Shown here: positions 36,303 to 50,084 of the stretch, in pieces
Layout of the letters: each line of letters starts with the position of its first letter
Numbering within the stretch: the stretch's first letter is position 1
NCBI GenBank assembly: GCA_052246995.1
Contig: JBQPWD010000004.1
Location: forward strand, 32,001-96,000
Source: Candidatus Bathyarchaeota archaeon
GTDB taxonomy: Archaea > Thermoproteota > Bathyarchaeia > Hecatellales > Hecatellaceae
Direction: 5' to 3'
Length of the DNA: 64,000 nucleotides
Position numbers and translations under genes: made by a program
The notes under the pieces: generated by a model
The model's database searches: none
Told to the model about the DNA's origin: nothing
The model's input: only the letters and a program-made list of their open reading frames with translations

Positions 36303-37574
36303 TTGAATAAGTTAAATGAAGCTTTAACTTTAAAAAACTTGGATAGAGTTAAACACGTTCTTTTAACTAAAGGCTTGGATGAAATTTCAAGAGAAGTTGA
36401 TAGCAATCTTAGGGAAATTCTGTTTAGAAGGGTTGAAGGACGATACTTAAGTGCTGATGAATGCTACCTGCTTAAGAATACTAAATTTGAAGAATTACCA
36501 ATGCTTTTAATGGTTGCATTTTTAATAAAAATTAAAAAGAAGGAGAAAAAGCTAAGCTTTTCAAAAAAAGTTTTCATACCTTTAACCAATCTTTGCAGAA
36601 ACTTTTGTAAATACTGCGGGTTTAGGAAAACACCTTGGAATGGGGGGAGGTTTTTAAAACCAAAAGAAGTTTTGGAAATTGCAAGGTTAGGTGAGAAGTG
36701 TAATTGCCATGAAGCACTTTTTACTCTTGGAGAAAAACCTGAAGAAAAATATGTTGAAGCAAAAAGACAACTAGCATGGATGGGATATAGAAGCACTATT
36801 GAATATTTAAGGGATATGTGTGATTTGGTTCTATCTAAAACTAGGCTTTTTCCACATAGCAACCCTGGAGTTTTAGAGAGTGATGAATTAAAGATTTTAA
36901 AGGAGGTTAACGTTAGCATGGGTTTAATGCTTGAAAATATCAGTATAAGACTTTGTAAAAGGGGTGGACCTCATGAGTTTAGTCCAGGGAAAAATCCTAA
37001 AATACGGTTAAAAGTTTTAGAAGAAGCAGGCAGACTTAAAATAGCGTTTACAACAGGAATTCTTCTGGGTATTGGTGAAAACTGGAAAGAGTTTATTGAT
37101 TCACTTTTAATTTTAAGAAATGTTTATAGAAGATTTAAGCATATTCAAGAGGTTATTATTCAACCGTTTGTAGCTAAAACTGGAACACCCATGGAAAGGC
37201 ATCCGCAACCATCAACATTAGACCTTATTAAGGCTATAGCTATTTCTAGGATAGCTCTTGATGATGAAATAAACATCCAAACACCACCAAACCTTCCAGA
37301 AAAAAAAGCATTAACCATTCTACCATTTTGCGGGATAAATGATTGGGGTGGAATTTCTCCTGTAACATCAGACTATATTAACCCTGAAAAACCCTGGCCC
37401 AAAATTTGTGAACTTAAAAACTTAAGTTTTAGCTGTGGGTTTATTTTAAAAGAACGTTTACCAATTTACCCAGAGTACATTACAAAGGAATTTAAATTTA
37501 TTCCGGAAAATATTAGAGATAAGGTTTTAAGTGTAGTTGATGAAGAAGGCTACGTAAGAGAGGATTTATCATAG
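36303..37574 (+). CDS. cofG: FO synthase subunit 1
   Basis: FIPLTNLCRNFCKYC, EALFTLGEKP, PHSNPG, SMGLMLE, NDWGGISP, INPE.PWP. Confidence 0.93.
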   Translation: MNKLNEALTLKNLDRVKHVLLTKGLDEISREVDSNLREILFRRVEGRYLSADECYLLKNTKFEELPMLLMVAFLIKIKKKEKKLSFSKKVFIPLTNLCRNFCKYCGFRKTPWNGGRFLKPKEVLEIARLGEKCNCHEALFTLGEKPEEKYVEAKRQLAWMGYRSTIEYLRDMCDLVLSKTRLFPHSNPGVLESDELKILKEVNVSMGLMLENISIRLCKRGGPHEFSPGKNPKIRLKVLEEAGRLKIAFTTGILLGIGENWKEFIDSLLILRNVYRRFKHIQEVIIQPFVAKTGTPMERHPQPSTLDLIKAIAISRIALDDEINIQTPPNLPEKKALTILPFCGINDWGGISPVTSDYINPEKPWPKICELKNLSFSCGFILKERLPIYPEYITKEFKFIPENIRDKVLSVVDEEGYVREDLS

Positions 37575-38708
37575 TTGTACACGTTTAAGGAAGAATTTTT
37601 TAAAAGTTTAGATTCTGATACTTCAAGTATTCTAGATAAAGCCTTAAATGGGAAGGAAATTTCTGAAAAAGAAGCTTTAAAGCTTTTTACTGTGAAAGGT
37701 ATAAATTTTCATGCATTAATTCTCGTGGCAGACTGGTTAAGGTTTAAGAGGGTTGGCGATATTGTAACCTTTGTTTGTAATAGAAACATTAACTTTACAA
37801 ATGTATGCCAAATTAGATGCGATTTTTGTGCTTTTAGTAGAGATTTAAATTCACCGGATGCATACCTTTTAAAGCCTAGCGATGTCCTGGCTAAGGCAAA
37901 GGAGGCATGGCTTAAAGGAGCAACCGAAGTTTGCATTCAGGGAGGGATAAACCCAGTTTTAGATTTAACCTACTATGAGGAAGTTTTAAAAGCGATTAAA
38001 AAAGAAATACCTAAAATTCATATTCATGCATTTTCACCAATGGAAATTGCCTACATGAGTTGGAAAAGTGGATTAATGTTTGATGAAGTTTTAGTTAGAC
38101 TTAAAGAAGCGGGACTTGATAGTATGCCTGGAACAGCGGCAGAAATTCTTGTTGATGAGGTTAGAAGGAAAATTTGTTCAAGAAAAATTGGAAGCCATGA
38201 GTGGATTAAAATTATAACAACCGCCCACAAACTTGGGATACCTACAACCGCAACCGTAATGTATGGGCATGCAGAAAGTTTAGAGAATTTAGTTACACAC
38301 CTAAAAGTTTTAAGAAACATTCAAAAAGAAACTAAAGGATTTACGGAATTTATTCCTTTAACATTTGTCCACTGGAAAACCCCCCTATACCTTAAAGGTG
38401 GGGTTAAGGCTGGAGCAACTGGTGCAGAAGACCTTAAGCTCTACGCTATTTCAAGGTTGTTTTTTAACGGAGTAATAGACAATATTCAAGTTTCATGGGT
38501 TAAGCTTGGAGCTAAATTTGCTCAAGTAGCTTTAACCGCAGGTGCAAATGACTTTGGCGGAACATTGATGGAGGAGAATATTTCAAAAAGTGCAGGTGCA
38601 ACTGCAGGTGAAAACATGTGCGTAGATGAGGTTGTCAGGTTGATAAGAGATTTGGGAAGGATACCCGCTCAAAGAACAACAACATATAAAATACTGAAAA
38701 AATTTTAA
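37575..38708 (+). CDS. cofH: FO synthase subunit 2
   Basis: NRNINFTNVC..RC.FCAF, GATEVCIQGG, HAFSPME, PGTAAEIL, GGTLMEENIS. Confidence 0.93.
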   Translation: MYTFKEEFFKSLDSDTSSILDKALNGKEISEKEALKLFTVKGINFHALILVADWLRFKRVGDIVTFVCNRNINFTNVCQIRCDFCAFSRDLNSPDAYLLKPSDVLAKAKEAWLKGATEVCIQGGINPVLDLTYYEEVLKAIKKEIPKIHIHAFSPMEIAYMSWKSGLMFDEVLVRLKEAGLDSMPGTAAEILVDEVRRKICSRKIGSHEWIKIITTAHKLGIPTTATVMYGHAESLENLVTHLKVLRNIQKETKGFTEFIPLTFVHWKTPLYLKGGVKAGATGAEDLKLYAISRLFFNGVIDNIQVSWVKLGAKFAQVALTAGANDFGGTLMEENISKSAGATAGENMCVDEVVRLIRDLGRIPAQRTTTYKILKKF

Positions 38709-39502
38709 GCTTGTTCTTTACTCCTTCTCCTTTCTAGAAATTCTTTAACAATTTTTAAATGTTCTTCAGATTTTAGGCATAAACTTTGAACAGTAGATTC
38801 AAGATTTAAAGTGGATTTTAAGTCTAAGCTAATTCCCATGTTTAAAACCATTTTAGCTAAACTTAAAGCTTTCCCTGGATTTTTAACTAGTTTTTCTACT
38901 AACTTGTTTACTTCCTCTTCAAGCTTTTCTTTCGGGACAACCTTATTAACTAAGCCTATTTTTTCAGCTTCATAGGCGCCAATAATATCACCAGTTAGGA
39001 TAAGTTCCTTAGCTTTTAAAAGTCCAATAATCTTCGGTAAAAAGAATGTTGCACCACTATCCTGAATAAGCCCAATCCTACTAAATATCTGCGAAAATCT
39101 TGCATTTTCAGATGCGATTATAAAGTCGCATGCTAATGCAATGCAAAAACCTGCACCAGCAGCATCTCCATCAACTACAGCAATAGTAATTTTTGGAAGA
39201 TTTGCAATTCTATGGATAACTTCTAGATGAAAAAAATCTATTCTTCTCTTAATTTCTGCTGGTTCAAGTTGGTGGAAAATTTGAAGTTGAGAAAAATCCG
39301 CGCCAGCGGAAAAGGAACCTCCAGCACCAGATATAATAACAATCTTAACATTTTCATCAAACTCAACATTTTTAAGGGCCTCAACTACTTCTCGAGTTGT
39401 TTCTTCGTCTAAGGCATTCTTTACTCGGGGTCTATTGATAATTATCTTTGCAACAACACCACTTTTCTCAAAAATTATGTTTTTAAACATAAAATCCCAC
39501 AA
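38705..39502 (-). CDS. Enoyl-CoA hydratase/isomerase, PaaG-like (Asp type)
   Basis: FSAGAD, AAGAG without Glu, F.RIGL..DSG. Confidence 0.88.
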   Translation of the reverse strand: MWDFMFKNIIFEKSGVVAKIIINRPRVKNALDEETTREVVEALKNVEFDENVKIVIISGAGGSFSAGADFSQLQIFHQLEPAEIKRRIDFFHLEVIHRIANLPKITIAVVDGDAAGAGFCIALACDFIIASENARFSQIFSRIGLIQDSGATFFLPKIIGLLKAKELILTGDIIGAYEAEKIGLVNKVVPKEKLEEEVNKLVEKLVKNPGKALSLAKMVLNMGISLDLKSTLNLESTVQSLCLKSEEHLKIVKEFLERRRSKEQA

Positions 39503-39644
39503 AGGATAGTTATGCTAAGTTAGGGTTTAAATTAGTTGTTATAAGAAGCCTATAGAAAAATTTTCTGTTTAGCAGACGTTAAAGAGTTAATGTTTTATAT
39601 TTGCTTATGGTAGTTTTATAGTAATTTGGAATAACTAGGTACAA

Positions 39645-39929
39645 GTGGTGATGAAGAAATTGGTTAGTGATAAGGTTCTAGGTGGTTTAATGTTTGTTGG
39701 AGGGGTTATAGTGTTTATTATCTATGCTTGGGCCTTATTCTTCGCTGGCGGGGTAGCGTGGTGGTGGGCTATCAGCATTGTTGCGATTGTTGCTGTTGGA
39801 GCAGTATGTGTAATAATAGCTTGGGTTGGTTATACTCTACTTACTACACCTGCACCAAGCCCGGTAACGCTTGAACCTGAACCTGAAACCGGTAAGGTTG
39901 AAGAAGAGAAGAGTGAAGAAACAAAATAA
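39645..39929 (+). CDS. Small two-helix membrane protein
   Basis: Two hydrophobic helices, WVGYTLLTTP, acidic tail. Confidence 0.7.
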   Translation: MVMKKLVSDKVLGGLMFVGGVIVFIIYAWALFFAGGVAWWWAISIVAIVAVGAVCVIIAWVGYTLLTTPAPSPVTLEPEPETGKVEEEKSEETK

Positions 39930-39934
39930 GGAGG

Positions 39935-42019
39935 TTAAAGTTTCTCAATAAAACTTATGTTGTCTCTTTTTGAAACAAAGATTTTTGTTGAAGCTTCCTT
40001 TGCAAGTTCTTCCGAGTGAGTAACAGCAAGAATTTGTCTAACCATTTTTAGGTTTGACATGGCTTTGGCTAAAGCTTCAATACTTCCATCCTCTTTACCC
40101 AAAGCTTCTGTTGGTTCGTCAAGAATAAGCAATTCAAAACTTTGGCCAGTCTTAGCCTCCATTATAAGTCTTCCAAGACCAATTCTGTAAGCTAAAGCAA
40201 GCCACGTTCTTTCTCCGCCAGAAATCTGGTTTACATTTCTTCTAAAACCAGATTCATCAATAAGAATCGGCGTGTATTCTTCATCAATTTCAACATAAAA
40301 GCTTCTTTCAGACCCTAATGTTAAACTATCCATAACAGATTGTATAGTTTCTCTTAAACTATCAATGTAAGCTTGCCTAAGTAGTGGAACAATTTCTTTA
40401 TAGGAAAACCTTAGTAAATCAATAATTTTACAGACCTTGTCAGCTAAATTTTTTTGCTTAATTTTTTCCCTAGCAGTTTGAAACCTCTTCTCAATAATTT
40501 CTAACTGATTTAACTTTTCCTTAACCATTTCCTCTTGGTGTTTAAGCTGGTTTAAAAGGTTTTTATATCTTAGAAGCTTTTCTTCCCTAACTTTTCTAGC
40601 GTTTTCAACTTCATCAACATTGAAAGTTGAAATTTCGTTTTCAATGTTTTTAAGCTTTGATGATAGGTTCTCCTGGAGCCTTAATTTTTCGTTAACTACA
40701 TCTTTAAGTTTGTTAAGCTCTTTTTTCTTATCAGAAAGAAGTTTTTCAACCTCGCCTATCTTAAATTCTAATAGTTCAACTCTGTTTTTTGCTTCGGAGG
40801 CTGATTTAAGCTTAAGCTCAACCTCGTTTAACCTGGATTCTACTGTTAAAAGTTTTTGTTGAACGTCAGAGTATTCAGTTGTAATTTGGTTAACTATTTT
40901 ATACCTCTCAAAAGGTTCAATCTTTCTTCTACATGTGGGACATATATCTTCGTTTTCAAGAATAGTTAAAGATTTTTTAGCATTATCAACAAAGCCTTTT
41001 AAACTTGAGAGTTCATTTTTGATTTTTAAAGATTCCTTATCTAATCTTTCAATTAAGCTTTTAAGCTCGGATAAGCTTTTAACATAAAAATTACCTAAAA
41101 TCTTCTCTTTTTCGTCTTTAATCTTCTCTAAACTATTACTATAATTTTCAATTTCAAAATTTTTATCTTCAATCTGCTTTTTAGAGTTTTCAATATACGC
41201 AACATTTTCACCCAGAAGTGTAAGTATTTTCAACTTTTCTTCTTTTAAAGCTTCAATCTTTTTTTCTAAAGTTTCTAAACTCCTTAGATTTTCTTCTGCA
41301 TCTTTAAAGCCTTTTTCAGCTTCAACAATTAGGCCTTTAAGGTTTTCAATTTCGCTTTGAAGATTTACATATTCAACTAAAAGTTTGTCGTACTGGTTTT
41401 TAAGCTCAATAAAACCGACAACATCAGGGTCTTTTTCTAGAGTAAGACGAACAGCATCATAATGCTTTTTATATTGGAGAAGGTTTTCCCATGCTTCATA
41501 AAAATCTGTAAAACCAAAAAGTTCGTCAAGAAGATTTTGCCTCTCACGTGGGGTCATGTTTAATATTTCTTTAAGCCTTTCTTGTTGAATCCATATGAAC
41601 TCCTCAAACATTTTCTTGTCAATACCAATTATGTTTTTAAGTTGTTCTTGAACCGCGTGAATTTTTCCCCATGCCAGAAGCTTGCCGTTTTCTGATAGTG
41701 TTAGTGTGCTTGAGTCTTGACTAATTCTACCACCTTTTTCCCTTTTTAAGCCTCTAACAATTTTGTACATTTTACCTAAATGTTCAAATTCAACAGAAAC
41801 TTTACAGTTGTTCTTATCTTCTCTTAATAGGTATCCATAATCCTTGTAAAGCGGTTCACCAAAAAGAGCAAAATGGAGAGATAGAAGTATGGAGGTTTTA
41901 CCTGTGCCAACACCTCCAACCATGCAGTTAAAACCTTCATTAAATTCTACTTTTGAGGATAGATGTGAACGAATATGTTGAATTTCAATCCTTTTTATAA
42001 TCATCCGCAAGTACCTCAA
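39935..42019 (-). CDS. rad50: Rad50/SbcC SMC-like ATPase
   Basis: Walker A GGVGTGKTS, Q-loop, coiled coils, CPTC zinc hook, SGGER signature, LDEPT. Confidence 0.93.
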   Translation of the reverse strand: MRYLRMIIKRIEIQHIRSHLSSKVEFNEGFNCMVGGVGTGKTSILLSLHFALFGEPLYKDYGYLLREDKNNCKVSVEFEHLGKMYKIVRGLKREKGGRISQDSSTLTLSENGKLLAWGKIHAVQEQLKNIIGIDKKMFEEFIWIQQERLKEILNMTPRERQNLLDELFGFTDFYEAWENLLQYKKHYDAVRLTLEKDPDVVGFIELKNQYDKLLVEYVNLQSEIENLKGLIVEAEKGFKDAEENLRSLETLEKKIEALKEEKLKILTLLGENVAYIENSKKQIEDKNFEIENYSNSLEKIKDEKEKILGNFYVKSLSELKSLIERLDKESLKIKNELSSLKGFVDNAKKSLTILENEDICPTCRRKIEPFERYKIVNQITTEYSDVQQKLLTVESRLNEVELKLKSASEAKNRVELLEFKIGEVEKLLSDKKKELNKLKDVVNEKLRLQENLSSKLKNIENEISTFNVDEVENARKVREEKLLRYKNLLNQLKHQEEMVKEKLNQLEIIEKRFQTAREKIKQKNLADKVCKIIDLLRFSYKEIVPLLRQAYIDSLRETIQSVMDSLTLGSERSFYVEIDEEYTPILIDESGFRRNVNQISGGERTWLALAYRIGLGRLIMEAKTGQSFELLILDEPTEALGKEDGSIEALAKAMSNLKMVRQILAVTHSEELAKEASTKIFVSKRDNISFIEKL

Positions 42020-43199
42020 GTATTTTTTTAACTTCTTCCTCTTCGCCTTTTAAAAGGTGAGGTATCAAGTCTAAAGTTTTTTTTGCAAGTTTTACACTAA
42101 ACTCTTCTCGAAAACCATAGCCTTTATAAATTTTTAAGAAATGTTCATATGCAGCTGTTTTAAGTTCTCTACTCTCCTTTAACTCTACAGGAAGTCTATA
42201 CTGTCCCTTCTCAGTAAGTTGGTTAACTATGCTAACGTATAACGCCTTTTTTGCTAAGCTTCTAATTTTTGGAATGTCAAGCTGGCTTTTTTTAACTCCC
42301 TCAGGAAGAACTCCTTTTATCACAAGCACAACCACAGAACTTTCAACATCGGCTTCTATAACGGTTTTAGATAGTTCATCAAAAATTTTTTCAGTAGTTA
42401 AACCTGAAATATCTTTTTCCTTAACAATAAATTTCCTAGAGCTATCAATTTTTATTCTGTTAACAGTTGGAGGTTCCTTTAAGGAAGGAACTTCAACATA
42501 ATAAAAACCTTTAGGAGTTTCTGCTTCAATGTAGGTTGTTGTTTCCAAGGATCCCGGATAGGCAAGCAAACCATTCTTAAAATTTTTTAGAATGGGTTGG
42601 TGAATGTGGCCTCCAGCATAGTAATTAAAGCCAGTCTTAAGATATTCAGCTCTAAGATCTGGCTTAAAGTTTAGAGAGACAAATTCTGAAACGTCTAATG
42701 TACCATGAAAAACAAAAATGTTAAATAGACTTGAATTTGGTTTTGGGGGGTTTCTTGCTAAATACTCTGGAATTTTCTCGTCAGCTTCCCTTAAGCTTCT
42801 TGAACTTCTAATACCGTAAATATAGTAGCTTTCATTCACATAGCATCCACCATCAAGCCTTGGCAGATAGGTTAGGAGACCAGCATTATGTAGGGGGATT
42901 AGAATGGTTCCTGTCAGCACATTTGGTTCAAGGTCGTGTGAACCATCAACAGCAAAAACTTTTATTTCAGCTTCTTTAAGTCTTCTTAACTCTTTAATGG
43001 CTGTTGCTAAAGTTTGGTTTGATGGTCGAGGGTCATCAAAAATATCTCCAGCTAGAATCACAAATGATGGTTTAAATTGAAGAATCTTGTCTACAGCTTC
43101 GATAAAAACTCTTGTAAAATCTTCTTTGCGCTCAGGAAGGTTGTATTGCATATACCCAAGGTGGGTATCGGCGAGGTGAACAAAACTAAAAGGTTTCAT
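41985..43199 (-). CDS. mre11: Mre11 nuclease
   Basis: ADTHLG, AGDIFD, GSHD, FHG, GGHIH, YPGS. Confidence 0.93.
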   Translation of the reverse strand: MKPFSFVHLADTHLGYMQYNLPERKEDFTRVFIEAVDKILQFKPSFVILAGDIFDDPRPSNQTLATAIKELRRLKEAEIKVFAVDGSHDLEPNVLTGTILIPLHNAGLLTYLPRLDGGCYVNESYYIYGIRSSRSLREADEKIPEYLARNPPKPNSSLFNIFVFHGTLDVSEFVSLNFKPDLRAEYLKTGFNYYAGGHIHQPILKNFKNGLLAYPGSLETTTYIEAETPKGFYYVEVPSLKEPPTVNRIKIDSSRKFIVKEKDISGLTTEKIFDELSKTVIEADVESSVVVLVIKGVLPEGVKKSQLDIPKIRSLAKKALYVSIVNQLTEKGQYRLPVELKESRELKTAAYEHFLKIYKGYGFREEFSVKLAKKTLDLIPHLLKGEEEEVKKILEVLADDYKKD

Positions 43200-43216
43200 T
43201 GCTAACCCCCAAAAAA

Positions 43217-44662
43217 CTAGTTAAAAAAGTTTCTTGTTTCACCCATAGTTTTAACATTCAATTCTTTAACTTTGACTATGAGTGGAACCTCCTTTGTAAC
43301 TTGACCAATAATTAGACAATAATGTGGTTCAAGAGAACATGCAATAGATTTCATTGTTTCGCTGTCAATTTTAGCTACCTTTGAAACCATGTTTAAGTCA
43401 TTTTCATTCTTGAAGTTAAAGAGAAAAACAGAGTCAACCTGCCTGTAAATATCTTCATGTATTGATGCTGGTTGATTTGTTATAAAAAATGTAAAAATTC
43501 CTAAATGTCTCATCCTTGTAACTATATCGTCCCAGTATGTTTCTCTAAGGTATAGGTGGGCTTCTTCAGCAAAAAGAAAGATAGCTTTAACAAGCCACAT
43601 CTTTAAAAGTTCAATAAGCTTTCCTAAAACAAATTCTACAACAATTTTTCTTTCAAGTGTCGATGTTTTGCTAAGATTTAAGATAATAATTCCACCATTA
43701 GAAATTTTGGTTAAAACGTCTTCTAATTTTGAAAGTTCATGAGAATTGTCGGTAAATAGGTGTGAATGTTCAAGAGTATAAAGTCGTGAGATTATAGCTT
43801 CTTTAACACGGTCATTGATAGTGCTAAACCTTAAAGTCTCCAAAATATTTCTAAATGTTAAATTTTTGGTTTTTTTAACCTCATCCCAAACTCTAAAAAG
43901 CTCTCTCAAAGAGAGTTCAGTTAAACCTAAAACGTGAAGTAAAATGTTTGATAAGACAGCCTTACCAGTATATTCTAATGTAACTTTAAAGTTTCTTCCA
44001 GGCTCTAAAACGAAAATTTTGTTATAATACCTGTTTTTTTCACCGTTATTATACAAACCCAGACCTGTATACTCACCATTAACATCAAAAACAACACATG
44101 GAGCACCATATTCAACTAAGCCCAGCATTAAAAGCTTACATAAATGTGACTTTCCTGTACCCTTTCTTCCAATGATAATTGATAGGCCGCCATCTAACGC
44201 GTCTGCATCAACCTTAAGTTCTGAACCATCTCTTGTAAAACCTATTTTTATCGGTCTTTTTAAGCCTATTCCAAGAAGCTTAAAAAGTTCGTTAAAATCA
44301 ACTCTATAAATTTTTGAGTAGATTCTTGAAGGAAGCCAAGAAGTGTCTAAGCTTATTACTTTGTTAATGATTGAACATCTAATCTTGCATATAAGAATTC
44401 TAACATCCTTTAAAAGTGTTATTTGTGACTCAAGGTTTAGCGGGTCAAAATCATCTCCAAACACGTTTATTTCAGTCATTTCTTCCCTAACAAGCTCTTC
44501 AACAAGTCCAGGAAAATTAATAAATTGAATATCTATAACCTGAGCTAGGAGGCTTTTTTTGTTTCTAGTATCCTCAACTAGAAGATAATCTCCTTTACTC
44601 ACTTCTTCTCGGGGGAAACATAAAATTTCAACAGTTTCACCTTCTTTTCTAAACAACTTCAT
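43217..44662 (-). CDS. herA: HerA DNA translocase/helicase
   Basis: HAS-barrel-like N-terminus, GRKGTGKS, FDVNGEY, EEAH, RMRHLG, TNQP. Confidence 0.88.
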   Translation of the reverse strand: MKLFRKEGETVEILCFPREEVSKGDYLLVEDTRNKKSLLAQVIDIQFINFPGLVEELVREEMTEINVFGDDFDPLNLESQITLLKDVRILICKIRCSIINKVISLDTSWLPSRIYSKIYRVDFNELFKLLGIGLKRPIKIGFTRDGSELKVDADALDGGLSIIIGRKGTGKSHLCKLLMLGLVEYGAPCVVFDVNGEYTGLGLYNNGEKNRYYNKIFVLEPGRNFKVTLEYTGKAVLSNILLHVLGLTELSLRELFRVWDEVKKTKNLTFRNILETLRFSTINDRVKEAIISRLYTLEHSHLFTDNSHELSKLEDVLTKISNGGIIILNLSKTSTLERKIVVEFVLGKLIELLKMWLVKAIFLFAEEAHLYLRETYWDDIVTRMRHLGIFTFFITNQPASIHEDIYRQVDSVFLFNFKNENDLNMVSKVAKIDSETMKSIACSLEPHYCLIIGQVTKEVPLIVKVKELNVKTMGETRNFFN

Positions 44663-44676
44663 AAGCTAAACCTTCA

Positions 44677-45687
44677 CTATTTTGCAAACGGTCCAAAAAG
44701 TATTTTCCTTGTACTTTGTAGCTTCTTAACTTTGATCCCAAGTTTTTTTGTTATTAAACGTTGAATACCTAAAATTTCTATCTTTGTGAATGTTGAAAGA
44801 ATGTGAGCTAATCTTAGGGTTTCAGGATATCCTTGAGTAAGAACATCATTACCAATAAGTTCTCCTACAGAGTTAACAATGTCTTCAAAACTAAGTTTTC
44901 CATCAACATCAACTCTAAATTCCATGTTTTCGTTTGAAAACTTTGCAATAAAGACTTTACCCAAGAGTGAGGAGGAAATAGTGCTAGGTAAAAGGTCATC
45001 TACACGAAGCATCCACGGAGGTTGAAACTCTTTTTTTAATCTTAAAAGAACAGATTTACTGTCAATATAGACCTTACTCTTTTTTGATATAGCTAAAACC
45101 TTATTACCTTCTTTTCTAGCCAACTCTAATATTTTATGGTTAGTTGATTGGTTTGAAAGACAACCATCAAAAATGATTATAGAGTTGCTTGTAGCCTGTG
45201 CTACATGCCATTGAAGAAATTTTTCAAAAATATTTTGAGATTGAGATTTGAAATCTAATGAATTGTTGACTGGTTCTGCGTTATTCCTTTCAAATACTTC
45301 ATCTAAGCCTGTAAAATGAAAAATGAAAGGGCCATATCTTACATACCTATAAGCGTAAACATCTTTCCACACAACAGCGCCTCTAAAAGCATAAACTACA
45401 CCATCCCTAGTTACGCCTATCCTTCTTTGAGAGGTATCTAAACTAATGATAAGAGTGGAAGAGTTACTTAGGGGTTTAAGTCTTATAAGCCTGTCATCTA
45501 CATTTATTGGCATGTTTTCAACAGTTAGCATCTTATCTTCAATAGAGTAATCCTGAAGTACGTCGGTAGGTGGCGTATCGTATACATCAAGAATTTCACC
45601 TTTAACCTTAGATAGAGATTTAAAACTTACGTTAAGAAGATTTTCCGGTAAATCTTCCATAAAATTTTTAAATTCAAGTTTAAACAT
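44677..45687 (-). CDS. nurA: NurA 5'-3' nuclease
   Basis: SLDTS, IFDG, AISKKS, GYPETLRLAH; sits upstream of herA. Confidence 0.82.
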   Translation of the reverse strand: MFKLEFKNFMEDLPENLLNVSFKSLSKVKGEILDVYDTPPTDVLQDYSIEDKMLTVENMPINVDDRLIRLKPLSNSSTLIISLDTSQRRIGVTRDGVVYAFRGAVVWKDVYAYRYVRYGPFIFHFTGLDEVFERNNAEPVNNSLDFKSQSQNIFEKFLQWHVAQATSNSIIIFDGCLSNQSTNHKILELARKEGNKVLAISKKSKVYIDSKSVLLRLKKEFQPPWMLRVDDLLPSTISSSLLGKVFIAKFSNENMEFRVDVDGKLSFEDIVNSVGELIGNDVLTQGYPETLRLAHILSTFTKIEILGIQRLITKKLGIKVKKLQSTRKILFGPFAK

Positions 45688-46177
45688 TGAATGGTGCCTC
45701 CGTTAAACCTTCTTCAACACCACTTGAAGCCAAAGTGTAAACATAGCCATGCTCAGTTTTCCATCTTCGGACCTTCTGTTTTTTAGTTAATCTTGTAAGA
45801 GTAAAACCTATAACCTTGTTTGAGTAGTGTAAAGCATTAGCATCTAAAACCTCTTTAATCTCGGAAAGTGTTCTAGGCTTCTTTTTACCCCATGAAGTCG
45901 AAAGAAGCTGTACAACAGCTTCAGGGCAACTTTTAGCACTAATCGACGGGTATGGTTCAGATAAATTATGGGAGACTGGAAAACTTTCTTCCTGCTTGGT
46001 TAGAGGCGAAGGATATTCTTCTTTACCTTTAAAAATTTCAGCTTTAGAAATTGCTTCGAATATTTTTGGTAAGTCTTTTTCAATCATTTCAAGAATGTTC
46101 TGTCTTGAACCTTCAAGTTGAAGCTCGCTGTTACCTATCTTTAAACGTAAAATTATTTTTCCACTATCGTTATTCAA
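45680..46177 (-). CDS. Hypothetical protein with N-terminal xEG beta-hairpin and C-terminal winged helix
   Basis: LKIGNSELQLEGS; PRTLSEIKEVL...LTRLTKKQKVRR...YVY. Confidence 0.65.
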   Translation of the reverse strand: MNNDSGKIILRLKIGNSELQLEGSRQNILEMIEKDLPKIFEAISKAEIFKGKEEYPSPLTKQEESFPVSHNLSEPYPSISAKSCPEAVVQLLSTSWGKKKPRTLSEIKEVLDANALHYSNKVIGFTLTRLTKKQKVRRWKTEHGYVYTLASSGVEEGLTEAPFNV

Positions 46178-46179
46178 GT

Positions 46180-46686
46180 TTAACCCTCCGACTTTATTTT
46201 AGGCAAAACTTCTTCCATAAGATGTTTAAGCCCAAGTGTTGTAACCTTATATTCGCCTCTACCAATTCTTTCAATAAGTCCGTCATCAGAAAGCTCGCTA
46301 AGTCTTCCAGCTAAAGCGCCAGTACCACTTCCAGTAATTCTTAAAAGTTCATCAACAGAAAGAGAGAGCTTATCTGAAACCTTTAACTCGTAACCAATAT
46401 AAGCCTTTAAAAGGTGTAAAAGTATACGCTCTCTTAGAGATAGTTGTTTTACAAGTTTCTCTTTCGGAATAAGAAGGAAAACTCCCTCGCTGGATATACC
46501 GATGATTCCCTCAATTTTTTTCAGTAATTCTTCAAAGTCAACTGAAATAACAAGGTTTTTAATTAAACTATAGCTTGGGTAGTGTTTGCTAAGAAACTCC
46601 ATCAAGGCGCGAGTAACATCCTCAACGGAACCTTCAAAACTAAGTTTTAGTTCACCACATTCCAAATAGACACGAATACTTTCCAA
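46180..46686 (-). CDS. Hypothetical protein with N-terminal FEG beta-hairpin and C-terminal winged helix
   Basis: GELKLSFEGS; LSVDEL...GRLSELSDDGLIERIGRGEYKVTTLG. Confidence 0.7.
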   Translation of the reverse strand: MESIRVYLECGELKLSFEGSVEDVTRALMEFLSKHYPSYSLIKNLVISVDFEELLKKIEGIIGISSEGVFLLIPKEKLVKQLSLRERILLHLLKAYIGYELKVSDKLSLSVDELLRITGSGTGALAGRLSELSDDGLIERIGRGEYKVTTLGLKHLMEEVLPKIKSEG

Positions 46687-46704
46687 ACTTTAACACACCC
46701 CAAC

Positions 46705-47160
46705 TTAAGATTTTAACTTTGAAATAAGGTCTTCAACCCAAGATTTACCTGTAAGAGAAAGTCTGTAAGCTCCTCCATCCTTTACAACCAAACCCTCATT
46801 CCTAAGCTCGCTAAGTCTTGCACCAAAACCCGCTGAAGGTCTACCTGAAAGAGCTAAAAGTCGTGCAACTTCTCTTGGTGTAAGAAGGTTAGGGTCATTA
46901 GCATAAAGAATTAATCCAATAGCTTCCTTATCATTTATCCTGTCTCTTGGAAGGGTTAAAAGTGTACCCTCATTAGTATATTCAATTAAACCTTTTAGAG
47001 ATTCTTTTTTATCGATAGGAGTTTCAGACCTAACAACTAAGCCATCTATAATATCTAACCATTCTGGAAGGGATTTTAGATTTTCAGCAAGCTCGGTAAG
47101 GCTTTCACCTTCAAAAACAATTTCACCATAAGGTCGTCTAAGTACTAACTTTACTTTCAA
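46705..47160 (-). CDS. Hypothetical protein with N-terminal FEG beta-hairpin and C-terminal winged helix
   Basis: GEIVFEGES; LTPREVA...ARLSELRNEGLVVKDGGAYRLSLTG. Confidence 0.7.
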   Translation of the reverse strand: MKVKLVLRRPYGEIVFEGESLTELAENLKSLPEWLDIIDGLVVRSETPIDKKESLKGLIEYTNEGTLLTLPRDRINDKEAIGLILYANDPNLLTPREVARLLALSGRPSAGFGARLSELRNEGLVVKDGGAYRLSLTGKSWVEDLISKLKS

Positions 47161-47189
47161 GTTTATCTGAAAAAGAATAAGTTTAAGAC

Positions 47190-47269
47190 ATATATAAACT
47201 TTTAACGTAAAGTTTATATATAATACGTTTTTTTACGAAATTTTAATTGTAATTTTACGTTTTATTACG
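47190..47269. promoter_or_regulatory. Promoter region of the wHTH-nurA-herA-mre11-rad50 operon: 13-bp inverted repeat (back-to-back TATA boxes) and phased ACG motifs
   Basis: ATATATAAACTTT-TAACGT-AAAGTTTATATAT at 47190-47221; ACG with C at 47206, 47226, 47236, 47258, 47268. Confidence 0.6.
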
Positions 47270-49178
47270 AAAAATTCTTCAATTTTTTACTGGCAACTTC
47301 AACAAGAACCTTAATGTCAACTCTGCCTCTAAACTCTGCCATAACGTTCTTTATAATAAGGTCCAAGGCTTTTTCAGAGCTACTTTTAATTTGTTGTAGA
47401 TTTTCAGAAATTTTACTTTCAACCACTTTTTCAACTTCCTCTATTGTTAAGCTTTTAAGTCCAAGTTTTTCTAAAGCCTCTGACACCGCGCCACCATTTT
47501 TAGCTAACCATTCAACAACAGCTGAAAAAGATTCCTTTGCAGTTTTACCTTCATTAATAGCCTTAAAAATTTCAAGAAAATCTTCATCAGAAAGATTCTC
47601 TACAGGGATACCCTTTCTTTCAAGATTTTTAACGGTTTCTGTTAACGATGAAGCTATAAAAGTTGGAGAAATAGAGACATTTTTAGCTATTTTTTTAAAC
47701 AACTCTAAGTAATCTGAGTTAACAATTTGTTCCGCCAGTTTTCTGTTAATGTTATGCTCACTCATAATATTTTTTACAACCTGCTCTGGTTCAGGGGGGA
47801 TATTTTTTCTAGCTTTCTCAATTAACTCTTCACTTACAACTACTGGTGGAATGTCAGTTTCAGGGTAGAGTCTGGCAGCACCAGGTCTAGGCCTCATATA
47901 CCTTGTTGTACCATCAGGTTTTGCCATTCTAGTTTCTTCAGGAACCCCGTCTAAAGCTTCAATAATTCTTTCAATAACAGCTTTAAGAGCTTTTTTAGCT
48001 TTCTCAAGTTTGTCGGCTACAAGTATAGCTCCATCAACCTCTGAAAGTTTAAGTTTAAGTTTAACGTGCTCTAACTCTTCAACATCTATACCGTAAGCTG
48101 GAAGTTCATCTGTATGAAATATTCCACCAACACCACCATAAAACATAGCTCTATCTGAAAGTTCTGTTCCAAATCTAACCTTTGGAATAAGTTCAATACC
48201 AAGTATACCGGCAATTTTAGGTATCTTAACTCCTAAAACCACGCCACCACCATCCAAGGCCTTTCTAATAACCTTGCTCTTAGTATTCCTAAAAATCTCT
48301 GTTAAATCATGAAAATCTTCTTTTAACAACTCCTCAGCAGTTAATCCACGACTCTTTAATTTTTCCTTAATTTCTAAAAGCTTAAGCTGTCTTTGAACCT
48401 CGTATTCAACAACTTTCGAAATAAGTTCAAGTTCTTGAACACCTTTAACCTCTACAAGACCTCCGCCAACAATAGATATGTTTAAATCCTGCCTGATAGA
48501 ACCTAATCCTCTTTTAACTTTTCCTGTTCTTCTTAAAACTTCACCTATGGCTAAAGCAACCTTTTCAGCTTCCTTGGGGGAGGAGATAACTGGGGCTGTT
48601 GAAACTTCAATTAAAGGAATACCTAGTCTATCAAGCCTATAGGTAACTTTGTTTTCATCTTCACTAACCTTTCTAGCGGCATCTTCTTCTAGACATACTG
48701 CTTGAACAGGTATTTTTTTACCATCAACATCTAAAAAACCTTCTAAAGCAACAATACAGGTTCTTTGAAAACCACAAGTATTGGAGCCGTCGATGACAAT
48801 TTTCCTCATAACATGTATTTCATTTACAGGTTTTGAGTTAAGCAAAATTGCAACTTGTAAGGCTATTTCAACAGCTTCAAGGTTTAAATCATGGGGGGGT
48901 TCCTCGTCAAACTCAACAAGACAAGAGGTTTCTCTGTCGGCTTCATAAACAACGAGTTTACACTTCTGAAATTCAAATAAAGCCGCAGGGTCAAATTCAC
49001 CAAGTTCAGATTGTGTTGGGCGTAAACGTCTAACAAAGGTAATTTCAGGTTTTCCTATTGAAAGCTTTGTTGGACAATTACAGAAAAGCTTACATTTTGT
49101 GTTTAGTTGTCTATGAATTTCAAGACCAACCTTTAACCCAATAGATTCATAATTTATAGTAGAGTTCACTGTCAGCAC
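47265..49178 (-). CDS. gatE: Glu-tRNA(Gln) amidotransferase subunit E
   Basis: GLEIHRQL, RKIVIDGSNT.GFQRT, IRQDLN, RPRPGAARLYPETDIP. Confidence 0.97.
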   Translation of the reverse strand: MLTVNSTINYESIGLKVGLEIHRQLNTKCKLFCNCPTKLSIGKPEITFVRRLRPTQSELGEFDPAALFEFQKCKLVVYEADRETSCLVEFDEEPPHDLNLEAVEIALQVAILLNSKPVNEIHVMRKIVIDGSNTCGFQRTCIVALEGFLDVDGKKIPVQAVCLEEDAARKVSEDENKVTYRLDRLGIPLIEVSTAPVISSPKEAEKVALAIGEVLRRTGKVKRGLGSIRQDLNISIVGGGLVEVKGVQELELISKVVEYEVQRQLKLLEIKEKLKSRGLTAEELLKEDFHDLTEIFRNTKSKVIRKALDGGGVVLGVKIPKIAGILGIELIPKVRFGTELSDRAMFYGGVGGIFHTDELPAYGIDVEELEHVKLKLKLSEVDGAILVADKLEKAKKALKAVIERIIEALDGVPEETRMAKPDGTTRYMRPRPGAARLYPETDIPPVVVSEELIEKARKNIPPEPEQVVKNIMSEHNINRKLAEQIVNSDYLELFKKIAKNVSISPTFIASSLTETVKNLERKGIPVENLSDEDFLEIFKAINEGKTAKESFSAVVEWLAKNGGAVSEALEKLGLKSLTIEEVEKVVESKISENLQQIKSSSEKALDLIIKNVMAEFRGRVDIKVLVEVASKKLKNFS

Positions 49179-49306
49179 CTAGAAAAATCTAAGCTAAACA
49201 TTAAACAATTTTTCCCTAAACCTTAATAGGTTTGGGGAGGGTTTTTAAGTTTTTGATAGATCCTTGACACTATTACTGGTTCTAGTTTATGCAAGGTTCG
49301 TAGAGG

Positions 49307-49885
49307 TTGGATAGCTGGGAAAATAGGAAAAAAATGTTTATGAAAAGAATTCATAGAGATCTTTCCAGTGGATATTTTGATAAAGATATGTTAAGCCTTG
49401 TTGAGGAGATTAATAAGCATCCTGAGATGTATACTACAAGCTCATGTAGTGGAAGGATTGTGCTTCTTAAGGCATCAAAACCTTGGAATAAAAGTAACGT
49501 TACAATTATTTGTAAGTGGCATGAAAGGATAAGTTTAGAGGAAATAACTAAAAACATTAAACCATGTGGTAAAGATTTAAGCTTATGGCTTATTCTTCAA
49601 TCGCCAATAATACATGTCTCATGTAAAAATGTTGAAATTGCAATAAAACTTGTAAGAAAGGCTAGAAGCTCCGGCTTTAGATATTCAAGCATATTCTCAA
49701 AAGGGAAGATAGGAATTTTTGTTGAAATTATGGGTAGTGAAAGAATAGATTTACCGCTTGTAATTGAGGATAGGGTAATTATAAACATGGAAAATCTAAA
49801 TAAGCTAATAGACCACTTAAACACAATACTACAAAACATAAAAACAAAAATCCAAAGATTAGGTGAAGCAGTAAAGATGTTGTAA
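49307..49885 (+). CDS. taw3: tRNA wybutosine-pathway methyltransferase Taw3/TYW3
   Basis: YTTSSCSGRI signature, KWH, PIIHV. Confidence 0.9.
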   Translation: MDSWENRKKMFMKRIHRDLSSGYFDKDMLSLVEEINKHPEMYTTSSCSGRIVLLKASKPWNKSNVTIICKWHERISLEEITKNIKPCGKDLSLWLILQSPIIHVSCKNVEIAIKLVRKARSSGFRYSSIFSKGKIGIFVEIMGSERIDLPLVIEDRVIINMENLNKLIDHLNTILQNIKTKIQRLGEAVKML

Positions 49886-49958
49886 AAACATGTTTAGGTG
49901 GTTAGTAGACTTTGCCAGAGTTAAACTTAAAAGCTTTAGAAAAATAATTTCTTATAAG

Positions 49959-50084
49959 CCCGCGGTAGCTCAGCTTGGAAGAGCTTCCGGCTGTAGGGTT
50001 CGCCTTTAAGGCGAGCCTCCTCAGCCTTCCAAGCGAACAACAGAAACCGGAGTGTCGCAGGTTCAAATCCTGCCCGCGGGACCA
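49959..50084 (+). tRNA. tRNA-Tyr(GTA) with 49-nt intron at position 37/38 (about 49997-50045), CCA encoded
   Basis: C1:G72 acceptor CCCGCGG/CCGCGGG; TCCGG-CTGTAG[intron]A-CCGGA; intron 3' ACAG pairs with CTGT as the BHB central helix. Confidence 0.93.

Follow-up and report, generated by a model that had tools for sequence, protein, structure and literature searches.

What do three small winged-helix proteins do at the head of an archaeal operon for DNA end resection? The question is raised by a 64,000-nucleotide (nt) stretch of Candidatus Bathyarchaeota DNA (hereafter the window), which comes from a 1.53-Mb, 100%-complete Bathyarchaeia genome whose DNA is present in hot-spring metagenome runs. 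Seven tightly packed genes lie on its minus strand in the order A-B-C-nurA-herA-mre11-rad50. The original prediction, made from the sequence alone, described A, B and C as same-strand open reading frames (ORFs) of 151-168 amino acids (aa), separated by gaps of 18 nt (A-B) and 2 nt (B-C), with C overlapping nurA by 8 nt, and co-encoded with the resection genes; the ORF map agrees exactly. A, B and C all start with TTG, A contains no Met codon at all, and Shine-Dalgarno-like runs (GGGGTG or GGAGG) can be read upstream of B, C and nurA. The gatE gene is found upstream of the operon on the same strand. Given this tight spacing, one transcript for the whole operon is a fitting interpretation. We find that A, B and C diverged long ago within an archaeal family of small two-part proteins that has no description so far and whose genomic partner is the NurA-HerA pair. 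With a probability of about one half, in our estimate, they form a transcription switch that is dedicated to the resection genes and controls itself.

A and B can be aligned as paralogs from end to end (BLASTP E 7e-10, 29% identity, with the segments quoted in the original prediction aligned to each other), and their profiles match with 99.2% probability (hhalign, E 2.5e-19). The relation of C to the other two is not detectable by BLASTP. It emerges from profile comparison, at 96.4% probability against the B family (E 1.4e-9 over 119 columns that cover both the N-terminal hairpin and the winged helix) and at 84% against A (E 7.2e-6). The AlphaFold2 model of B (predicted local distance difference test, pLDDT, 88) opens with a hairpin of strands 4-10 and 13-19 that ends in FEG, which is the N-terminal hairpin ending in (F/L)EG that had been proposed. 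Helices and a second small hairpin (62-71) come next, and the model closes with a classical winged helix and a C-terminal helix. Residues ~71-168 match MarR, PadR, ArsR and HxlR regulators with Z 9-10.2 and a root mean square deviation (rmsd) of 1.3-4.3 Å; the match to 2qvo has Z 10.2 and rmsd 2.8 Å over 84 aligned residues, and 104 chains have Z of at least 8. B is thus predicted from its model to have the three-helix bundle and beta-hairpin wing of the winged-helix fold superfamily, and A and C are placed there by profile alignment to B, in keeping with the proposal of three related winged-helix proteins. In addition, the B-family profile aligns the recognition helix with the DNA-binding helices of CooA and IdeR-type regulators.

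The N-terminal half is a different matter. When the first 80 residues of B were modelled alone (pLDDT 80, predicted template modelling score, pTM, 0.43), no fold match was found, the best VIA Z being 4.0 and the best Foldseek E 1.3, and only a minimal strand-strand-helix unit could be aligned. We considered a tandem winged-helix arrangement like that of ESCRT-II (endosomal sorting complex required for transport II), suggested by a Pfam EAP30 match (E 0.0014) of a Caldarchaeum B-type protein, and dropped it because the N-domain model has no winged-helix match. Compared with MarR/PadR/ArsR-type regulators (AF1382 2qvo, BldR 3f3x and MarR 5h3r), the trio shares the fold of the C-terminal 80-90 residues, the sequence pattern of the recognition helix and operator-like repeats at its own promoter. 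It differs from them in the N-terminal 80 residues, for which there is no fold match, and in forming tandem sets of two to four old paralogs, beside NurA-HerA in 38/40 loci.

The expectation that the proteins would match no characterised family was borne out in Pfam, NCBIfam and PADLOC, where every match of A, B and C fell below the curated cut-off. The winged helix-turn-helix families with cut-offs that were not reached are Pfam MarR, HTH_24, Penicillinase_R (C, 17.7 bits against 22.6), AbiEi_4 (B, 15.9 bits against 25) and HVO_A0261_N, together with NCBIfam BlaI. Scanning 32 B-family sequences singly gave scattered weak winged helix-turn-helix matches only (best E 6.1e-6). In a tree of 93 family members (matches at E < 1e-15 and 120-215 aa long, with shorter or weaker ones left out), all 27 A proteins form one clade with support of 100/99, and in a quick tree 20 proteins of the B' type form another. 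The separate A and B' clades mean that the copies are old.

Some B-like modules occur as parts of larger proteins, being fused to a Ser/Thr protein kinase domain that is followed by a second, B'-like module, to DUF488, or to a 200-aa N-terminal domain (P0080, P0170 and P0129/P0136). These fusion architectures could be real or could be assembly artefacts. The 200-aa domain of P0129/P0136 has no Pfam match, and a PDB sequence search with P0129 came back empty.

The family is widespread. Of 41 same-class genomes, 29 contained relatives when B was the query. A B/B' profile matched 206 of 301 genomes sampled across the phylum at E ≤ 1e-3, the weak matches among these probably being generic winged helices, and retrieved 872 cluster representatives, 258 of them at E ≤ 1e-10, from a library of 1.84 billion proteins. 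Names attached to ten members from outside the class include Caldarchaeum subterraneum, Calditenuis, Terraquivivens, Brockarchaeota and 'Bathyarchaeota B24', and these ten proteins are annotated as hypothetical or carry generic ArsR or Mrr labels. An Atlas search brought up no clusters except the unnamed archaeal ones of the family itself.

Conservation of the gene linkage in relatives had been set beforehand as a test of the original prediction. We examined ~20 kb around one match in each of 40 genomes and mapped the genes with purpose-built profiles. Half of the sample consists of the best 20 of 28 same-class relatives, with the window's own genome excluded, and the other half of 20 out-of-class genomes with strong matches, chosen non-randomly across families; Bathyarchaeia, Caldarchaeales-type and Brockarchaeota-type lineages are represented. 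A NurA-HerA pair lies beside the cluster in 38/40 loci (the exceptions are L021 and L043), so that the original prediction passes this test; such recurrence places the arrangement far beyond chance. The neighbouring pair is either of the window's divergent 'type 1' or of a 'type 2' that passes the Pfam NurA model (E ~1e-19). C is present in 29 of the loci and adjoins nurA in every one, co-directionally in 9 and divergently in 20; A is present in 26, and gatE is adjacent in 15. The layouts are co-directional, inverted-C or fully divergent. Mre11 and Rad50 genes follow the cluster in six loci, all from the window's own family, and five relatives that were checked have Rad50-like genes elsewhere. 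Across the 301 genomes, type-1 NurA is found at E ≤ 1e-30 in 88, and by a hand count from two profile-search tables 83 of the 88 have a B-family match at E ≤ 1e-20; three more (G240, G274 and G315) have a weaker match and two (G237 and G319) have none.

From this co-distribution, and from a linkage of 38/40 for NurA-HerA against 6/40 for Rad50, we conclude that the partner of the family is NurA-HerA and not Rad50. The analogy first drawn with winged-helix partners of structural maintenance of chromosomes (SMC) ATPases, kleisins and kites, is therefore not supported. Like the kite proteins ScpB, MukE and JetB, the trio consists of small winged-helix proteins encoded beside an SMC-family ATPase, in this case Rad50. 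However, the Rad50 linkage is limited to 6/40 loci, the operon has no kleisin-like gene, and JetB (8dk1_E) gives no more than a weak Foldseek match to B (E 0.018). Kites have two tandem winged helices; the N-terminal domain of B, in its model of pTM 0.43, gave no winged-helix match.

Several loci show variations in the neighbourhood of the cluster. In L020 (G002), which belongs to the window's family, C and mre11-rad50 are separated by a tandem of both NurA-HerA subtypes. In L036 (4442-6952, minus strand) the HerA beside the cluster is of type 2, is 836 aa long and carries an intein (Pfam Intein_splicing, E 5.9e-20). A conserved gene of ~230 aa is located on the opposite strand within the cluster in 7/40 loci (L021, L023, L035, L036, L042, L043 and L044; for example L042:10975-11670). 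It has no Pfam match, and its N-terminus is weakly winged-helix-like (hhalign 18%).

The repair genes of the window were identified with unequal ease, and the identities originally given to them stand, with the qualification that NurA is very divergent. HerA has the central ATPase domain (Pfam DUF87, PF01935, E 1e-14, 55.6 bits against a cut-off of 23.2), and its matches to the NCBIfam HerA and CedD models fall far below their cut-offs. Mre11 and Rad50 each have a strong sub-equivalog NCBIfam match (E 2e-32 and E 2.4e-42) and each is the only copy found in the genome; the true start of Rad50 is probably a few codons downstream of the called one. The 336-aa product of the gene between C and herA reaches only E 0.12 with Pfam NurA (12.3 bits against a cut-off of 21), with 215 residues collinear, and the sole PDB match of a profile built from 23 orthologs is NurA 2ygk (E 0.36). 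In the orthologs D84, D174 and H295 are invariant and E155 is nearly so; by comparison with Sulfolobus NurA, these acidic and histidine residues would be catalytic. The herA gene is directly downstream in the window, and the pairing with HerA is constant in the related loci. Judging by these sequence features, the protein is best described as a putative, very divergent NurA-like nuclease.

An alternative assignment of HerA to the Ced DNA-import system was judged by the NCBIfam cut-off score, a transmembrane segment and a VirB4-like N-terminal domain. It was rejected, the CedD score being 52.2 bits against a cut-off of 600 and confined to the ATPase part; passages of the literature describe CedD with a transmembrane domain (PMC11868833). 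Three further pairs of NurA-like and HerA-like genes occur in the genome, at C2:20035-22669 (L053), C6:4866-7532 (L054) and C10:7778-10520 (L055), and within the stretches fetched none of them has A-, B- or C-like neighbours.

Canonical archaeal operons have the order herA-mre11-rad50-nurA in Sulfolobales and nurA-rad50-mre11-herA in Thermococcales. The operon in the window encodes the same four enzyme types and differs in its order (nurA-herA-mre11-rad50), in its very divergent NurA and in the three winged-helix genes at its head. Our literature searches found no paper on winged-helix genes beside nurA-herA, nor on this family. The genomic-context passages retrieved from a 2026 NurA review give four-gene operons only, and the word 'winged' is absent from its main text (PMC13748450); another paper, in the passages concerned, merely lists herA and nurA (PMC7554672).

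The region upstream of gene A contains an array of short repeats (Table 1). Four direct CGTA half-sites and one inverted half-site are spaced by 10, 22, 10 and 20 bp, that is, by multiples of ~10-11 bp, and flank two TATA-like boxes, TTATATATAAA and TTTATATA; with such spacings all sites fall on one face of the helix. The strict paired CGTA motif occurs five times in the 1.53-Mb genome, two of these in this promoter, as compared with one or two occurrences in each of six Markov simulations. The 120-bp regions upstream of 26 A genes together contain 54 ACGT tetramers where 7.6 are expected, an excess for which a Poisson value is overstated because the genomes are related and not independent. 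At least one ACGT occurs in 21 of the 26 regions, including those of a GC-rich relative and of Brockarchaeota-type loci, and in the latter TACGTT repeats lie downstream of the TATA box. Upstream of the first B gene in six loci that lack A, reading by eye found no such repeats, only scattered single TACG or CGTA in two. Divergent C/nurA loci have a palindrome of the TTGCGCAA type right after the TATA box. Exact TGCGCA is found there 11 times against 0.6 expected, in 9/19 loci, and most of the other divergent loci have degenerate TTGnnCAA forms; in the window there is no TGCGCA near the operon.

Table 1 Genes of the operon and elements of its promoter region, numbered by position in the window
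Feature	Position	Strand	Remarks
Gene A, 151 aa	46705..47160	-	TTG start; hairpin-helix N-terminal module and winged helix
Gene B, 168 aa	46180..46686	-	TTG start; central family member; residues 1-80 N-terminal domain, ~82-165 MarR/PadR-like winged helix (predicted)
Gene C, 165 aa	45680..46177	-	TTG start; distant family member; N-terminal hairpin-helix, variable linker, winged helix
NurA-like nuclease (putative), divergent 'type 1', 336 aa	44677..45687	-	Weak Pfam NurA match; HerA pairing
HerA-type ATPase, 481 aa	43217..44662	-	Pfam DUF87 above cut-off
Mre11, 404 aa	41985..43199	-	Sub-equivalog NCBIfam match
Short Rad50, 694 aa as called	39935..42019	-	NCBIfam match; CPTC hook motif
Operator-like array	47205..47269	-	Four direct CGTA half-sites and one inverted (ACGT); read from sequence
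Direct CGTA half-sites	47269-47266, 47259-47256, 47237-47234, 47227-47224	-	Read from sequence
Inverted half-site ACGT	47208-47205	-	Read from sequence
TATA-like box TTATATATAAA	47223-47213	-	Putative operon promoter; read from sequence
TATA-like box TTTATATA	47198-47191	-	Putative operon promoter; read from sequence

Contigs from RNA-seq library X8 are identical to the window at 47168-47005 and 46971-46641, and the second bridges the A-B junction. The first stops at 47168, which leaves 8 nt to the TTG of A and lies ~26 nt downstream of the TTTATATA box. As a sign of transcription these contigs are at most a weak hint, since such libraries may contain contaminating DNA and ends cannot be read from contigs; the stretches of the operon without a contig carry no information.

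We hypothesize that the trio is a transcription switch dedicated to the resection genes and controlled by itself. The N-terminal hairpin-helix module would probably be the surface on which the paralogs pair, and the MarR/PadR-like winged helix, with its ordinary recognition helix, would contact DNA. We infer that A, B and C, probably as a mixed oligomer, bind the phased CGTA repeats that surround the TATA boxes in the trio's own promoter and so set, by repression or by activation, the transcription of a single polycistronic message that includes nurA, herA, mre11 and rad50, possibly in response to DNA damage. This reading is the best supported of those considered because the recognition helix is of the ordinary kind, because base-specific, phased repeats occur at the family's own promoters and because C is often divergent from nurA. 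It is also common for regulators to be the first genes of the operon that they control. A mixed oligomer would fit the way in which the old paralogs A, B and B' have stayed next to one another (A clade, 100/99). A complex prediction for A+B+C from their own alignments with B as the scored partner, for which controls were not run, gave a score of 0.01 against a mark of 0.32 and counts neither for nor against such an oligomer. The original prediction had left it at a module that 'recruits or regulates' the resection machinery; the operator-like repeats at the family's own promoters, and the divergence of C from nurA in 20/29 loci, favour the second verb over the first.

Several observations weigh against a switch of this kind. 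Three or four dedicated paralogous regulators for one operon, maintained across several archaeal classes, would be unusual, as ordinary local regulators are single genes. C and nurA are translationally coupled through an 8-nt overlap, a sign that C may be made, like a subunit, in a constant ratio to the enzymes; and the same cluster accompanies two different NurA-HerA subtypes. There is no sign of a regulon, as no other promoter in the genome is convincingly marked by the paired CGTA motif, three other matches notwithstanding. ACGT is absent from 5/26 of the A upstream regions (L030-L034), no ACGT repeats are found upstream of the unlinked mre11 genes of G019 and G037, and the motif counts come from related genomes and are not independent of one another. 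Finally, the RNA data are contigs, which show no transcription start, strand, level or single transcript.

The coupling just mentioned points to a rival reading, in which A, B and C are stoichiometric accessory subunits of HerA-NurA. DNA ends or structures would then be recognised by a mixed winged-helix complex, which would load, direct or restrain the nuclease-motor, an adaptor role not known so far in archaeal resection, and which might also regulate its own genes. This is the strongest competitor of the transcription switch, though a clearly less probable one. It would account for the NurA-HerA linkage in 38/40 loci with two subtypes and several classes, for the strong B-family match in 83/88 genomes with strong type-1 NurA, for the translationally coupled genes and for the retention of several old, non-redundant paralogs; and the proteins in which a B-like module is joined to a kinase, DUF488 or the 200-aa domain do not have an architecture typical of regulators. 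Against it stand the conserved, sequence-specific operator-like motifs at the family's own promoters. In 20/29 loci C lies on the strand opposite to nurA, and the other three NurA/HerA-like loci of the genome have no such partners in the stretches fetched. Fusions of the family to NurA or HerA are likewise absent among the best 150 of the 872 representatives; long open frames in G217, G286 and G027 that resembled fusions proved to be over-extended frames overlapping other ORFs.

A stricter form of this idea is somewhat more doubtful still. According to it, A, B, C and, where present, B' are true stoichiometric subunits of HerA-NurA whose task is to recognise DNA ends or branched DNA and then to load the nuclease-motor or gate it, promoter binding being secondary feedback. 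If it were correct, end resection in archaea would have its first dedicated adaptor, one conserved in lineages that range from Bathyarchaeia to Caldarchaeales-type archaea, and the accepted four-protein picture of resection in archaea would change. The switch and subunit readings could also both be true together.

Two further explanations fit the data less well. In the first, the cluster has a function of its own, its products being nucleoid or chromatin proteins or regulators of other targets, and its place beside NurA-HerA reflects a gene order inherited between gatE and the repair genes. The housekeeping gene gatE is indeed a frequent neighbour (15/40 loci), and L021 and L043 have no NurA-HerA pair in the stretch fetched. 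Yet the linkage survives rearrangement, through co-directional, inverted-C and fully divergent layouts and with both NurA-HerA subtypes; the family is co-distributed genome-wide with type-1 NurA; and the sites of a chromatin protein or a global regulator would be scattered genome-wide, which is not so for the paired motif. We consider this explanation improbable. Even less credible, and very unlikely in our view, is a defence or toxin-antitoxin-like module in which AbiEi-like antitoxins or sensors restrain a NurA-HerA effector: HerA-type ATPases do occur in defence systems, Pfam AbiEi_4 matches 12/32 family members below threshold (best E 6.1e-6) and B has a marginal PADLOC AbiEi match (E 0.0035), but A, C and the NurA-like protein have no PADLOC match, HerA and Rad50 have generic ATPase matches that do not amount to membership of a PADLOC system, the cluster keeps its place beside gatE in different classes, the operon also contains the genome's only Mre11 and Rad50, and the paralog clades are deep and separately retained.

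No LexA-like switch is known in these lineages. Archaeal proteins that control the expression of DNA-damage genes are described for Sulfolobales in the passages of two papers concerned with Orc1-2 and Tfb3 (PMC6061795 and PMC6101594). These belong to unrelated families and are global regulators, whereas the motif in the window is local to one promoter. How resection is controlled, and what the assembly of HerA, NurA, Mre11 and Rad50 consists of, are among the questions that the 2026 review counts as unresolved in its relevant passages (PMC13748450). On either of the two leading readings, an undescribed and conserved family accompanies NurA-HerA in several classes of uncultured archaea, with candidate operators given at base-pair resolution. 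The system also lends itself to testing, with a 90-bp promoter fragment and a handful of small thermostable proteins.

In a search of 39000-50000 against Rfam no family was found at its gathering score, and the only match at E ≤ 1 was a chance-level one to a long non-coding RNA (E 0.58). A 94-aa protein with two transmembrane segments is encoded at 39645-39929 on the plus strand, convergent with rad50. It has no Pfam family above cut-off and is 45% identical (E 2e-16) to the product of an ORF adjoining the B cluster in Caldarchaeum (L038:10620-10898); it recurs in 8/40 loci, and the two lineages have it at opposite ends of the cluster. Past the end of rad50, judging by their translations only, are two adjacent ORFs resembling radical S-adenosylmethionine enzymes of F420 biosynthesis (CofG/CofH-like; 36303-38708, plus strand) and a crotonase-like ORF (38705-39502, minus strand), all of which are ordinary-looking.

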